Shown here: positions 3,946-48,832 of the stretch, piece after piece
Layout: each line of letters begins with the position of its first letter
Position numbering within the stretch: the stretch's first letter is position 1
Origin: Malacoraja senta
Lineage: Eukaryota
DNA length: 64,000 bases
Reading direction: 5' to 3'
Assembly (NCBI GenBank): GCA_038087875.1
Contig: CM075988.1
Coordinates: 19,284,001-19,348,000, forward strand
Program-made: the position numbers and the translations under genes
The notes under the pieces: generated by a model
Seen by the model: only the letters and a program-made list of their open reading frames with translations
Database searches by the model: none
Told to the model about the DNA's origin: nothing

Positions 3946-4148
3946 AGATAGACTCAAAATGCTGGAGTAACTCAGCGGGACAGGCAGCATCTCTGGAGAG
4001 AAGGAATGGCTTACGTTTCGGGTCGAGACCCTTCAGACTGGTTAGGGATAAGGGAAACGAGAGATATAGATGGTGATGTAGAGAGATAAAGAACAATGAA
4101 TGAAGGATAAGCAAAAAAGTAACGATGATAAAGGAAACAGGCCATTGA
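3946..4148 (-). mobile_element. Penelope-derived segment
   Basis: Shared GCTGGAGTAACTCAGCGGGACAGGCAGCATCT block and partly deleted hammerhead motif. Confidence 0.65.
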
Positions 4149-4498
4149 ATAGGTTACTCCTCAGGACAGCGTGCTGAATGAAGCTCCCATGTTAACGATT
4201 CAACTCCGGTGTTTTGTGCGTTACAGTATCTCCAATGCCAACATGTCAGTCTAAACTTCTTAAATCTGTAATGTATTGAATAATCAACACGCTCTAAAGA
4301 TACTTCACTTTAAAACCTACTTGCATATTGGTAGCTGTATAGCCCGCAAATACATGAAATCCATTATTTATCATGAGCAATGTACTTAAACTGGTTAAGC
4401 TGGAATTCAGAGAATTTGCTGCTCATTTGAATTTGTTTGCTTGTATTTTATTTGGGGAACGCTTTTTCTTTTTCTTCGATTCTTATTGCATCTCGTAG

Positions 4499-6410: not shown

Positions 6411-6769
6411 TAATAATAATAATAATAATGGATTGGATTTATATAGCACCTTTCTAATACCCAAGGCGCTTTACATCGCATTATTCATTCATTCCTCAGT
6501 CACACTCGGTGGTGGTGAGCTACTTCTGTAGCCACAGCTGCCCTGGGGCAGACTGACGGAAGCGTGGCTGCTAATCTGCGCCTACGGCCCCTCCGACCAC
6601 CACCAATCACTCACACACATTCACACACACACACATTCACACGCGGGCAAAGGTGGGTGAAGTGTCTTGCCCAAGGACACAACGACAGTATGCACTCCAA
6701 GCGGGATTCGAACCGGCTACCTTCCGGTTGCCAGCCGAACACTTAGCCCATTGCGCCATCTGTCGTCCC
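6411..6769 (-). mobile_element. tRNA-derived CORE-type SINE (AFC-like) with L2-type tail
   Basis: On -: A/B boxes (TGGCGCAATGG, GGTTCGAATCCC), CORE-like GTGTCCTTGGGCAAGACACTT, tail AAAGCGCCTTGGG...TATATAAAT(TTA)n. Confidence 0.8.
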
Positions 6770-29245: not shown

Positions 29246-32200
29246 CTATACTTGTAATAATTCTATAAATGCAGACCACGTCAGGTGGAAGTGATCTGGT
29301 TTACCTGCCAGGAGGAGTCTTATCTCTTCTAGGTGTAATGTTTCAAACATATTTGAAATCCACATGTTTATAGTTGGTATTGGAGCGTTTTTCCAGAATT
29401 TTAGGATTAACTTTTTTCCAGTTATTAACCCGTAATCTATTAATTTCTTTTGAAACACATTTAGTTCAGGACTATCTTCCGTTGTTCCGAAGATAATCCA
29501 TTCTGCTTTTGGTATCAGTTTTATTTTAAATAATTTTTTGTACAAAAAACAAATGAGTGTGCTATAGTAGCTTCTTGAGATTGACATTTATCACAAATGG
29601 ATGATATATTTGGGAAAATTTTATTAATTTTAGTTTTTGAATAATATAATCTATGTAAAATTTTAAATTGTATTAAAGTGTGTCTTACATTAATCGAACA
29701 TTTATGCACGTTTAATAAATGTTCATTCCACCTTTCCTTTGAGATTTTAATAGCTAATTCTTGTTCCCAGTCTCTTCTAATACCTTCCGTAGATGGTATT
29801 TCTACATTTAAGATAATATTATACAAATATGATATTAAGTTTGCTGATTCAGATTGTATCTGCATTGCTTCATCCAATACATCTGCTGGGATATTATAAT
29901 GATCTTTTGTATATTTTTTCAAATAGTCACATATTTGAAAATATTTAAAATATTGATTATTTCCCAGTTTATATTTTATTTGTAATTGTTGCAATGATAG
30001 TAATTTTCCAGTTTCATACAAGTCACCGAACGTTTTAATTCCTAGTCTATCCCATTGTATAAAAGATTTGTCTGTAATAGAGGGATTAAACAAAGGGTTA
30101 TTAACTATTGGAGATAAAAGCTATAGATTTCTTAATTTTAAATTTTGTTTTATTTGTTTCCAAGTTCTGATTGTACTATGTATAATTGGGTTTTTGTTAT
30201 AATTTATGTTATTCAGTTTCATTGGTGAGAGGAGGATCGCTCCAATGTTACCAGAGGAGCAGTCCTCTCTCTCCATTACAATCCAGTCCACTTGCTGGGC
30301 AGAGTTGTCCATCAGTTGGATCATATTTTTAATATTTACTGACCAATAATAATACATGAAGTTGGGGAGTGCTAAGCCCCCTAATACTTTAGCTTTGTTC
30401 AAGTGTGTTCTTTGTATTCTATGGGATTTATAGTCCCATATAAAATTAGTAATGTCTGAGTCCAATTTTTTTTTAAACTTCTTTGGTAGGTATATAGGAA
30501 TCGATTGAAATAGGTATAAAATTTGTGGTAAGAAGATCATTTTTATTGCATTTATTCGGCCTATTAAAGACATCGGAAGCGTTTTCCAAAATTTAATTAA
30601 TGTATTTAATTTATTAAGTAGATCATAATTTGCTTTGAACATGCCTTGATATGTTCTGGTGATTTCAATACCCAAGTATTTAAATTTTTCTGTAGCTATT
30701 TTGAAAGGGAATTTTAAAAGATGTGTTGAGTCTTTCGGTTTTATTGACATAATTTCACTTTTATTCCAATTTATTCTGTATCCAGAAAAGGATCCAAAGT
30801 CCTCAATTAGATTTAATATGTTTGGTATAGTAATTTGAGGTTTTGTAATGTACAATAATATATCATCCGCGTATAAAGATATTTTATTATTTGAGTATTT
30901 AGTATTATACCCATGGATATCTGGATGTGTTCTAATTTTTTCTGCTAAAGGTTCAATTATGAGAGCAAACAACTGTGGTGATAATGAGCACCCTTGTCTG
31001 TTTCCCCTTGATAGTTGAAATTTCGATGATAATAAATTATTAGTTAATATTCTAGATGTAGGTTTATTATATAATAATTTAATCCATAAAATAAAATTCC
31101 CACCAGTTGGAATTTTTGTAATACTTTATCCATATAATTCCATTCTACTTGGTCAAATGCTTTTTCAGCATCCAGCGAAATAATTGATAATTCTTGTTCT
31201 TCAATTTTGTGTGAGTGCATTATATTGAGTAGGCGTCTCATATTATTAGATGAATATCTCTTAGGGATAAACCCCGTCTGATCTGGGTTTATTAATTTAC
31301 TAATATATTTACTTAATCTTCTAGCTAATGTTTTCGCTAATATTTTTTTAACTGTATTTAACAATGCTATAGCTCTATATGAACCCGGTTCTTCTATATC
31401 TTTGTCTTTTTTAAGTATTAGTGTGATCGTTGATTCAGCTAATGTATCAGGTAATATTTGTTTTTTAAAAGCATATTGATACATTTTTTGTAACCGTGGT
31501 ATACTTTTGTCATAAAAACTTTTATAAAATTCATTAGTAAATCCATCAGGACCTGGAGTTTTTCCATTCTTTAATGAATTTATTGTGTCTTCTAATTCCT
31601 TGATTGAAATTTGTGCACCCAATTCCTCTTGTTCCTTCAACTCTAACTTTGGAAGATTACAATTATCCAAGAACTCTGTAATTTTATTGGAGTCCGTTGT
31701 CATTTTAGATGTGTACAAGTTCTCATAAAATTGCGCAAATCTTTTATTAATATCCTTCGGTATGGTTAGTAATTCCCCTCTATCTGATTTAATCTTTTGG
31801 ATCGTATGTTCTTTTTCTCGTTTTTTTAGCTGACAAGCTAAAAGTTTATGCGGTTTATCCCCAAATTCAAAGTGTTCCTGTTTTGTAATTTGGAAAAGTC
31901 TTATAAGTTTGGCTGATAATAGTTTATTTAATTTAAATTTCAAAATTATTATTTTATTATGTTTATCTATTGATGGATCTTTAGCATTATCTATATCCAT
32001 TTGTCTAATACGTTCTTCTAACTGTCTTTGTTTATTCTTATTCTTATTATTTTGAAAAGCTTGGTATGAGATTATAACACCTCTAATAAATGCTTTAAAA
32101 GATTCCCATAGTAAAGTAGGCGATATATCTGGAGTGTCATTTATTTCAAAAAAGACGTCCATTTGTTCTTTTAAATATATACTCGCTTGCGGATCTTTTA

Positions 32201-32979
32201 GGATTTGAGAATTGAATCTCCAAAACGATTTATTCTTAGACATTCCTTCCAGTTTTAAAAAGAAAGTTAGTGGTGAATGGTCTGAAATCGAATTTGTTGG
32301 GTTCACAGTGTGAGGGATTCATTTTGTATCCACCAGGAAATAATCTATACGTGAGTATGTTTTGTGTACCATTGAATAAAATGAGTATTCCCTGCCAGTC
32401 GGATTAGCAATTCTCCAAACATCTGTTATATTGGTATTGTTTATATACGTATTTAAAAGTTCACTAGTTTTAGATTTTGTATTCCCTCTCTGTTTTTGGC
32501 TTGATTTGTCTAAATACAGATCTAAAACACAGTTAAAGTCTCCTCCTATTATAACATTTTGATAATTAAATTCTGCGATTATGTTCAGAATTTTATTGAA
32601 AAAATGAGGATTGTCAAAGTTAGGCACGTATATATTTACCAAGGTAATTGGAGTATCATGAATTTCTCCGGTAACTATCAAATATCTCCCTTCAATGTCT
32701 GTTATGGTATTCTTTGCTTTGAATGGTATATCTTTTCTAATAATGATTGATGTACCTCTAGATTTCGAAGTATATGAAGAATGATATATTTGACCATTTC
32801 GCCCTCAACCTAGCTTGATCCTGGGATTTTAGATGAGTTTCTTGTAAGAAAATGATGTCAGAATTGTACAGTTTCAGCTGAGCTAATATCTTACCCCTTT
32901 TAATAGGTTCATTAATACCTCTTATATTCCAACTGCAGAATGAGACTCCTCCTAGGTTCTTTTGTTTAACATCTTGCAT
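29246..32979 (-). pseudogene. L1 ORF2 (APE endonuclease, RT, CCHC), multiple frameshifts
   Basis: SWNIRG..FLQETH, GGDFN, SRIDY, SDH; KTPGPDG, LDAEKAFD, RQGCSLSP, LYADD; CDKC..HSFVFC. Confidence 0.92.
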
Positions 32980-33873
32980 TTTGAATAATTATAATACCTT
33001 TAAATCTTGCGGTGCATCCATGTCCCAGGTCTTTGGGTATTGGGGGAACCTTTGCATTACTAAGTTTTGTTGGCATATCCCTTTTACGCTTATCACTAAA
33101 CACAAAACACAAACATGTGACTTTATGTGGTAATAATAATAATTTTTTAAAAATTGAAAAAGTGAAAATACAGTGTCTAAAATGGTCGACACTGTAACAA
33201 GTGGCCCACCTGTAGGTGGGAGAGAACCTTGTTTCGACTTCCATTGTTGATGTTAAACAAATAACACCGCACCCTTGGTTAATCATAACATAATAGGACG
33301 GGGCCTCACAATCAGATATATAATACAAATTTACCCTATATATTTCATTATAACATATCATATATATATCGCAATTTTAGCTAGTAATTATTAAACGAAT
33401 GATTTTACCTTCAATAATAATCAACTGTTGGTTGAAGGGGTTAATGAAACATGCTCCTGGACCTGAGCCAGGTGCTCGTTTCTCATCCCCTCCTCCCAGT
33501 TATAGATAAGGTTTAGATTTAGTAAAAATTTATGTTAGTTATGTTAGTTCGTTATTTTTTTTATTAGCGTCCGTTACTATTCTAGTTTAATATTGATAAC
33601 TTGTTAAATTGTTAAGTTGTTAATAGGATCAATTCTTACAATTGGATTTAATATTATAATCTATTAAACGATTAATGCTTCTGGTATAGTCCATTCTCTT
33701 CGGTTCGGCTGTTTACTTCGTTTGGAACACAGAATGTCCTTGAGTTAAAATTCCACAGATAACCAGTCTCGCCATCCTAAACAAAACACTACATGAAATG
33801 GTTCTGAGCTGCCGATCCTCCATTAACTGTGGAATTCTAATAAAAAAGAAGTTTGTTCATACCATTTAGTTCT

Positions 33874-46529: not shown

Positions 46530-47291
46530 TGTTAATCCTGGTCAAATTGGAGAGGCTGGGACCCTAAAATTGAGTAAAGGCTTCTGGGCTGCTAGGCCAT
46601 TTGGTCAATTTAAAAGTGCTTTCTGTAGAAATGGGACAAGCTGCAGAATGGTGCTAGTTTGTCCAGAGCCTAGATCAGAGCTGCAGGAAGAGAATGGGAA
46701 CATCTGCAGACCCTGACAATTAGGTGCAAAATGCATAGAATGGATTGGATGAATGCAAACCAGACATACACATTGTAAATAATGTTGCAAAGCTTTACTT
46801 TGCTGAATGTTGATTGGATTAAGTATTGAGCCTTGTCTGGTTTTCTTGCATATCAGGGCAAATGTTGCGATGTTTGTTTCCTCTGAGAAACACTGTTTGA
46901 ATACAATGTATTAGCTACTGTATTATTGGGTTAGGGAAATGTCTGTCATGTATGGGGTTAATCAATATCTGTAATTGGATTATAAAGAGACCACCCCAAT
47001 GTGGTTCGGCCCCTTGAGGTCCCAGGACATATAAAAGTCCGCTACCACGAGGTCCTGTGTCGACCATCTGGGAGACCGCTTGGGACTGCGTGACCTTCTG
47101 TGGTGTCTCTGTTTGAGCGAGGCCAAGAGGGCTTGATCAGGCAGATACGAGGATCGAACCCACGGTGGTTAGGTACAGTAGTGGGAACTGTAATTGTGTT
47201 TTGTCAAAATAAAGTTTGATGCGCAAGTGCTTGACTCAGTGATTTTTGACTGAAACTAGACTGGGGGGAAGCTTAGAACGAGCAATTTACA
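46530..47291 (+). mobile_element. Solo LTR (762 bp)
   Basis: TGTTAA...TTTACA; perfect 4-bp TSD CCCA; CCAAT 46996, TATAAAA 47030, AATAAA 47208; splits a CR1 fragment. Confidence 0.9.
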
Positions 47292-47613: not shown

Positions 47614-47813
47614 NNNNNNNNNNNNNNNNNNNNNNNNNNNNNNNNNNNNNNNNNNNNNNNNNNNNNNNNNNNNNNNNNNNNNNNNNNNNNNNNNNNNNNN
47701 NNNNNNNNNNNNNNNNNNNNNNNNNNNNNNNNNNNNNNNNNNNNNNNNNNNNNNNNNNNNNNNNNNNNNNNNNNNNNNNNNNNNNNNNNNNNNNNNNNNN
47801 NNNNNNNNNNNNN
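47614..47813. other. Assembly gap (200 N)
   Basis: Run of N. Confidence 1.
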
Positions 47814-48025
47814 CTGTATCTCAGTACTTGTGCCAATAATAAAGCAATACCAATACCAAGTGGACGTAAGCACCAATCAGTTCAATAACATCTGCCTGTA
47901 GAACATATCTGCCCAGTTTTACCTCCTGAATCCAGTCCAAAGCAATGTTAAGAATGGGTAATGAGTTGATATTTTAATTAGTTCATGAGTTAATGGGCTA
48001 ATACGTTAATCATTGAGTTAATGGG

Positions 48026-48602
48026 TGTAGATTAGTGTCACTCATCTTATGAGTCATGCTTTTGTAGTTACGCCCACTAGCTTTACAGTAACCCTCCCTG
48101 CCTGGTTCCCGCATTATTAGAAAAACGTGCTAGCATGAAGTTACCTGTGCTATGTCGTTAATAAAGTCTTGGACCTTTATCATGGTGTAAGGCTTCAGTT
48201 ATTTGGACAGCCGCAACACAACATGGTGTCAGAAGTGGGATATGAACCCACGCCTCCAATTGGTCTCTATTGCACACGTGCTGGTCGTGTTTGTAAGCCG
48301 GTTGTAAAGTACCCGGACTATGTTTGACTTTCCTCCAGTTTATTATCAATTGCTATGCATGCCTTACTTAGTTAATGGGTTGTTGATTCTTTAAGAGGGA
48401 GGATGTAGATCAGTGTCACTCATGTTATGAGTCATGCTTTTGTAGTTACGCCCATTAGATTTACAGTAACCCTCCCTGCCTGGTACCCGCATTATTAGAA
48501 AAACATGCTAGCATGAAGTTACCTGTGCTATGTCATTAATAAAGTATTTGGACCTTTATCATGGTGTGAGGCTTCAGTTATTTGGACAGCCGCAACACAA
48601 CA
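48026..48602 (+). mobile_element. TRIM-like miniature LTR retrotransposon
   Basis: LTRs 48026-48223 and 48404-48602 (TG...CA, ~10 differences), PBS 48224-48241, PPT AAGAGGGAGGA 48393-48403, TSD ATGGG/ATGAG. Confidence 0.92.
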
Positions 48603-48832
48603 ATGAGGAAAGGTATTGAGTTAATGTTAATTAATGGCAATGGGTTAATTAGTTATTGGGTTATTAAGTTAATAAGTTAATGATCAATGAGTTAATGAGA
48701 AATGTGTTAATGAGAAATGAGTTAGGAATATAAACTGTTACATTACCACTGCAGTTGAAGAATGTGGCTCTCCACCCACTACAAGGGCAGTTAAGGATGG
48801 CAAACAATATCAGGTCTTGTCAGCACAATCCT

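Follow-up and report, generated by a model that had tools for sequence, protein, structure and literature searches.

In the stretch of Malacoraja senta DNA analysed here (64,000 nucleotides; the window), a short LTR element carries, directly behind its 5' LTR, a complement of tRNA-Leu which runs past the usual 18 nt of a PBS. The question is whether this complement is a primer contact that the element inherited or a copy of the primer itself, and what its mismatches record. The element was found to span 48026-48602 (577 bp) and to contain no coding sequence; it is a Gypsy derivative of which an internal region of about 4 kb is gone. Its features are the following.

48021..48025, + strand: left target-site duplication, 5 bp, 1 mismatch against the right one
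48026..48223, + strand: 5' LTR, 198 bp, TG...CA; differs from the 3' LTR by 9 substitutions and 1 gap
48224..48241, + strand: 18-nt perfect complement of the tRNA-Leu 3' end including CCA; probable tRNA cDNA
48242..48263, + strand: tRNA-Leu(CAA) read-through, nt 19-40; mismatches at 48242 (A58) and 48259 (variable-loop C)
48261..48263, + strand: TGG overlap (3 nt) of the tRNA copy and the parent 3' region, the deletion join; TGG in 28/28 family copies (L003-L030)
48261..48403, + strand: final ~150 nt of the parent's 4.0-4.25-kb internal region, equal to 4087-4240 of 4240 in L121
48393..48403, + strand: polypurine tract, seen in the letters
48404..48602, + strand: 3' LTR, 199 bp, TG...CA
48603..48607, + strand: right target-site duplication, 5 bp

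The two TG...CA LTRs, the polypurine tract and the 5-bp duplication (1 mismatch) are features of Ty3/Gypsy LTR elements. The length below 1 kb, the short LTRs, the presence of a PBS and a polypurine tract and the absence of coding sequence also fit the anatomy of a TRIM. Amplification as like copies was not found in a genome search for the exact pattern only, where the window's join occurred once; an amplified TRIM was rejected because the join is single-copy and no two of the 8 extended copies in this LTR family share a join. ARAGORN called no tRNA at 48224-48263, and the sole tRNA hit in Rfam was weak (19.7 bits, E 0.34) and antisense, located on the minus strand behind the LTR, so the site is neither a tRNA gene nor a SINE, and both candidates were rejected. 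The tRNA-like sequence within the LTRs that marks Helenus and TRIMp3 was not found, the sole Rfam tRNA-like match lying behind the LTR. Descent from a copy with the same nt 19-20 and end point (L169) was rejected, as its LTR is less than 78% like that of the window.

An LTR-like stretch with AATAAA was also seen at 46790-47290, 750 bp upstream of the element and separated from it by an assembly gap (47614-47813); a short T-loop-like complement lies inside it, near 47153-47164. Elsewhere in the window, ARAGORN called a tRNA-Ala on the minus strand (6692-6766) with the anticodon GGC, unusual in a eukaryote and probably SINE-derived. A series of long open frames (136-424 aa) of low GC at 29521-33376, also on the minus strand, is probably a single decayed mobile element.

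The letters described in the sequence-only reading stand at 48224-48263, flush with the CA end of the 198-bp LTR. That reading had put the extension at about 35 nt into tRNA-Leu(CAA); the complement does continue past 18 nt, and its true length is 40 nt. Five Leu-CAA/CAG genes were found in the assembly, all without CCA: L138, L139 and L140 for Leu-CAA, each with an intron, and L053 and L054 for Leu-CAG. Alignment to these host genes gave matches well beyond 18 nt, with nt 1-40 differing from the Leu-CAA gene L139 at nt 19 and 36 only (2 differences), from L138, likewise Leu-CAA, at nt 19, 20, 36, and 38, and from the Leu-CAG gene L053 at nt 19, 20, 36, 38, and 40. The chance of at least 19/22 matches beyond the PBS was 2.5e-9. 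The mismatch proposed at nt 19 (48242), opposite A58, was borne out against L139, and a further one, absent from the earlier reading, was found at nt 36 (48259), opposite the variable-loop C. A mismatch at nt 20 had been ascribed to CpG deamination, which is tenable, but L139 and L140 bear T there themselves; the T at nt 20, present in 7/100 first-listed extended copies, may thus be either CpG decay or a gene letter. The identity as Leu(CAA) finds its support in nt 37-40, while over the first 35 nt the CAA and CAG genes match equally well.

Extended copies, parent elements and the native PBS

In the genome, 1,281 places were found to contain CA followed by a perfect 18-nt PBS, and 459 of these LTR ends continue into the tRNA. 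A copy was counted as extended when nt 21-27 were exact after the perfect 18-nt PBS. The first 80 perfect-PBS loci of the 1,281 served as a consecutive sample; they fell into 34 LTR clusters and comprised 30 extended and 50 plain 18-nt copies. In a generic search for extension of other primers there were 17 hits against 6 control hits. Five of the 17 were variants of the same Leu site, three presumably resemble another Leu type and one Pro, and the remaining hits look like SINE ends or chance. At L299:1503-1600 there is a complement of about 40 nt to what we take to be a tRNA-Pro-like 3' end, directly abutting telomere-type repeats. Primers other than this one are almost never extended, and the process appears to recur across many LTR families of one Leu-primed clade.

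Parent copies of the window's family have an internal region of 4.0-4.25 kb in which RT, RNase H and integrase follow each other in the Gypsy order (open frames of L121; also L192), and the window copy retains only its last 150 nt. TGG forms the last letters of the tRNA match and also stands at the corresponding place of the parent in 28/28 copies, so that the tRNA copy and the 4-kb deletion have one join. A two-step origin, with read-through in an ancestor and the deletion later, would be another conceivable history of these letters. The family set, defined by LTRs at least 85% like that of the window, contained 13 copies: 4 with a short PBS of 10-13 nt followed by leader, 1 with 18 nt only and 8 extended. 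Among the 8 extended copies nt 19 was A in 4 and T in 4, and each join was different. In the gag-keeping copies of the family perfect pairing is limited to 10-13 nt, and 48224..48241 is therefore itself probably tRNA cDNA. Contigs from four organisms had 26-46 loose ends at 48263, which continue as tRNA and then diverge; in the contig of one further organism the 3' LTR is bridged into the same flank. The window copy's own join was spanned by none among the contigs listed.

A gag-start search returned many young copies, of which 30 were fetched and 21 scored. Perfect pairing covered 8 nt in 16 copies, 7 nt in 1, 13 nt in 3 and 18 nt in 1, so that 20/21 had a perfect PBS pairing of 7-13 nt. The 13- and 18-nt forms look like partial in-register overwriting by a tRNA copy. 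In one young Gypsy family with many long open frames the PBS is bulged, with 8 perfect pairs and one extra A; such a bulge may also lessen targeting by tRNA fragments. In 7/16 short-PBS LTR clusters, which are related to one another, the next 30 nt behind the PBS showed better pairing with the T-stem and variable arm of the tRNA than shuffled sequences did (p<0.05); for the following 30 nt, taken as a control, this was so in 0/16. The p values in the three clusters of the window's own family were 0.06-0.10. This putative second box may be a selected contact, a remnant of read-through that has eroded and can be renewed, or a combination of the two.

The second box bears on the proposal that the extension is a selected and inherited long primer contact, by which a non-autonomous TRIM would out-compete its helper for tRNA-Leu. 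We consider this highly improbable for the window copy. The element has the TRIM anatomy, the putative second box of gag-keeping elements pairs with the T-stem and variable arm in 7/16 LTR clusters, and shared extended joins do exist: in one LTR family (L149, L152, L214) a 35-nt complement was inherited through several insertions with differing flanks. However, the window's join was found once, and the one other copy at the same acceptor differs in its LTR (83%), its duplication and its end point. Furthermore, 106 extended copies, compared by the sequence behind the end point, had 100 distinct joins, and errors cluster at bases that are likely modified, which is unexpected under selection for pairing. 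The earlier suggestion that an extended contact helps a parasite element is thus not supported for this copy, the join being single-copy and all 8 extended family copies having different joins, although an imperfect extended contact seems to exist in the gag-keeping parents. Nor is an extension with T at nt 19 the standard state of related Gypsy elements; T is frequent there among extended copies (62/100), yet the extension is not standard in gag-keeping ones.

Joins, landing sites and integration

A partner copy was available for 53/106 extended copies and absent for 53/106; among the joins with a partner, 41/53 were clean and 12/53 unclean. Microhomology of at least 3 nt was found in 15/41 clean joins against 5.9% in a random-join control, with a mean of 2.5 against 0.7 nt. 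When the unclean joins were scored as misses, the proportion was 15/53 (p 3e-7). An overlap of 0-1 nt was present in 16/41 clean joins. The window copy was without a partner in the 106-copy survey, and its 3-nt overlap rests on the family comparison.

In the 80-locus sample, the 30 extended copies landed in sense coding sequence in 20 cases and in antisense coding sequence in 4, with leader and gag start kept in 2 and 4 unassigned. The 50 plain 18-nt copies landed in sense coding sequence in 15 cases and antisense in 28, with gag kept in 4 and 3 unassigned; the gag-kept counts are lower bounds, as scoring used one gag. Altogether 67/80 perfect-PBS insertions go straight into coding sequence. 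A second LTR was present within 7.7 kb in 19/30 extended copies and none within that distance in 11/30. Among the extended copies with clean TG..CA edges, 12/12 had a 5-bp duplication, which argues for placement by integrase.

Several further forms of join were seen. Plain 18-nt copies of several LTR families (L144, L148, L163, L174, L178, L199, and others) reach the same RT stretch antisense, apparently by a switch through the final five or six letters of the PBS. Separate insertions (L063, L302, L303, L326, L072, L309) stop before G37 and land antisense at the RT active-site region, which is likely a hot spot of jumping. Three copies (L079, L318, L320) stop before G37 and then fold back, copying their own tRNA complement into tRNA-sense sequence. 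In very small forms (L327, L052, L056, L201) the jump from the tRNA copy returns to the end of the LTR; L327 contains the LTR end, PBS and extension twice, 84 bp apart.

It might be supposed that break repair or gene conversion, acting after insertion, brought free tRNA cDNA or LTR-tRNA strong-stop DNA into an element already in place. End joining would also account for the microhomology, inversions and fold-backs, and in some copies the join leads to LTR fragments or a second LTR is missing within 7.7 kb. Against this, the CCA start always lies exactly at the LTR end, the two LTRs, polypurine tract and 5-bp duplication are retained, and primers other than Leu are almost never extended. We therefore give patching after insertion very little credence and hold to an origin during reverse transcription.

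Template, errors and stops along the tRNA copy

The long-extension pattern was found at 57 places, all of which were examined: 3 were genes and 54 were copies. The tRNA copies begin with CCA, which the host genes do not contain, flush with the LTR end, and the intron present in the three host Leu-CAA genes was absent from all 54 long copies; the template was the mature, spliced, CCA-bearing tRNA. The window copy itself ends before the exon join. At L142:1449-1535 (contig C4936) a complete spliced tRNA-Leu(CAA) with CCA stands behind an LTR end; it has zero errors at four likely modified sites, and ARAGORN calls it a tRNA gene.

The letter at nt 19 was tallied by hand in the first 100 of the 459 extended copies listed. 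It was T in 62, A in 25, C in 12 and G in 1, that is, non-T in 38/100, against non-A in 3/462 (0.6%) at the control position nt 23. The plain T in 62/100 copies indicates that many primers were unmodified there or correctly read. In the 80-locus sample nt 19 was wrong in 10/30 extended copies and nt 36 in 10/14 (two of these being one duplicated Leu-CAG copy), and the background at non-CpG, non-modified positions was 9/436. In the 54 long copies nt 36 was A in 34, G in 12, C in 6 and T in 2, so that the variable-loop C was misread in 42/54, in both gene backgrounds, and nt 37 of the complement was invariant. At or just before G37, 48/54 long copies end; the other 6/54 pass the exon join, and 4/6 of them misread G37. 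Misreading near G26 as well was found in L083, and in Leu-CAG copies (L045) both the variable loop and G37 were misread. In a set of 27 end points, from which three repeated joins were left out, nt 33-35 accounted for 10/27 and nt 47-50 for 8/27, in windows picked after data inspection. A deletion-type error, with two letters missing at A58-G57 within the read-through, was seen in L160 (= L058, L105) and L194.

A zebrafish tRNA sequencing study places m1A58, m3C e2, m1G37, and m2,2G26 at these sites and names m3C e2 for Leu-CAG and Ser only, not for Leu-CAA (bioRxiv 2024.01.30.575011). Such modified bases lead to RT stops and typical errors, according to PMC8062790. By analogy with other vertebrates, the errors and stops would fall at bases modified on the Watson-Crick face, the variable-loop C being likely m3C e2 and G37 likely m1G.

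The least probable of the readings accepts the read-through and takes the mismatches as ordinary mutation or as variants of unassembled tRNA genes, without modification marks; the CpG positions do decay (nt 21 in 3/30, nt 28 in 3/28), the assembly yielded no more than five Leu-CAA/CAG genes and a host gene carries the nt 20 T, but nt 19 lies outside any CpG and most of its changes are transversions, and nt 36 shows all four letters in both gene backgrounds. It is hardly tenable for nt 19. Restricted to nt 36 it is unlikely, although the dominant A there could come from Leu-CAA genes missing in the assembly, in which three were found.

Proposed route, known systems and meaning

The 40-nt complement very probably arose when RT overran its primer in plus-strand synthesis, misread two likely methylated bases and jumped through a 3-nt overlap, and the product was then integrated. 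The evidence consists of the anatomy, the tRNA match, the position-specific errors, the spliced template, the clustered stops, the independent microhomologous joins and the short native PBS. Among these, the errors, the spliced CCA-bearing template and the independent joins uphold the proposal, already made from the letters alone, of plus-strand read-through across m1A58 with misincorporation. The window copy is a one-off, an ordinary member of an unusual population.

The following route may be proposed. The first plus strand would copy the tRNA up to m1A58; with a native PBS of 8-13 perfectly paired nt it would have no matching acceptor and would normally be discarded, as in Ty3. The stalled RT would often pass m1A58, to be held up a second time at G37 (likely m1G) or, before it, at the variable-loop C (likely m3C e2). 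A few bases of pairing could then join the free 3' end to minus-strand DNA, to plus-strand nucleic acid, giving inversions, or to a stretch of its own, giving fold-backs. The acceptor might be a minus strand still in synthesis or an internal site of a completed one, and the sequence fits either. Once both LTR ends were completed, integrase would insert the product. A jump in or near the second box would keep the leader, as may have happened in the one family with several such insertions (L149, L152, L214).

Parts of this chemistry are known from retroviruses. In HIV-1, over-extended plus-strand strong-stop DNAs (P1-P5) arise when RT does not halt at m1A58; their ends lie at modified bases farther along the primer, position 37 among them, or at the tRNA 5' terminus (PMC13191261, PMC8599865). 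The long over-extended products are said not to complete or integrate (PMC13191261, PMC8599865, PMC11251516). In both systems RT passes position 58 and stops at later bases, modified in HIV-1 and likely so here, but the HIV-1 DNAs are minor reaction products, and the present genome contains at least 459 such DNAs as integrated germline copies in which the misincorporation is preserved. Large deletions from the PBS by faulty second strand transfer were reportedly found in retroviral vectors by Pulsinelli and Temin in 1991. Those were rare single-round mutants, whereas the comparable state is here the commonest one of perfect-PBS insertions (67/80). In lentiviruses and spumaviruses a primer over-extension sequence behind the PBS, complementary beyond A58, could accept over-extended DNA (Muthuswami 2002, as described in PMC13191261). 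It comprises a few bases, up to position 55, in that account (PMC13191261); the putative Gypsy box lies opposite the T-stem 5' strand and the variable arm and has a non-pairing spacer before it.

Shared with Ty1 and Ty3 are the short PBS, a second segment (putative here) that pairs with the tRNA, and the element itself, rather than the tRNA, as the normal source of the PBS; the first plus strand of Ty3, which contains a partial copy of the primer, is a dead end (PMC5371799, PMC7472051). Unlike in Ty1/Ty3, the tRNA-copying strand is often captured and integrated here, mostly with deletion or inversion, and the short PBS becomes a tRNA copy of 13, 18 or up to 87 nt. Drosophila Gypsy has an 11-nt PBS and a second tRNA-Lys2 site for the anticodon and T stems; by PMC1635307 that site lies near the 3' end and is dispensable for cDNA synthesis, whereas the present putative box adjoins the PBS. 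TRIMs and Helenus are similar as short non-coding LTR elements with a PBS, a polypurine tract and a tRNA-derived piece, and the tRNA-like sequence of Helenus, in the LTR, is a proposed promoter (PMC10886601). The tRNA piece of the present copy differs from that of Helenus in its internal position, its antisense orientation and its direct continuation of the PBS, and this copy has not been amplified. In the literature searched, whose coverage left out most subscription papers, no account was found of Gypsy families with integrated copies of tRNA read-through. The read-through chemistry is known from retroviruses; integrated copies at genome scale, with a modification record and a short native PBS behind them, did not appear in that literature.

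A wider claim stands at even balance in our judgement: that integration of the dead-end tRNA-copying strand is routine in a whole clade of Leu-primed Gypsy elements whose PBS is short and in two parts. The hundreds of copies per genome would then form a datable library of germline tRNA modification (m1A58, an unreported Leu-CAA m3C, m1G37, m2,2G26), along with one-step non-autonomous elements, spliced tRNA retrocopies and an occasional rewriting of the element's own second box. Reviews hold that read-through past m1A58 blocks completion and integration and that the Ty3/Gypsy PBS is not inherited from the tRNA; against this, at least one third of perfect-PBS insertions here contain read-through DNA. 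A perfect PBS is here mainly a mark of dead copies. For annotation, the 18-nt PBS of a family model may differ from the working PBS, and such copies are called genes by tRNA finders. From the copies one can also count the sites at which a retrotransposon RT halts or errs in vivo on its native primer, and compare germline tRNA modification across time and species from genome sequence alone. TRIM-like elements and spliced tRNA retrocopies gain an origin in one step, and the second primer box, if the wider claim is true, would be a self-renewing relic of read-through.
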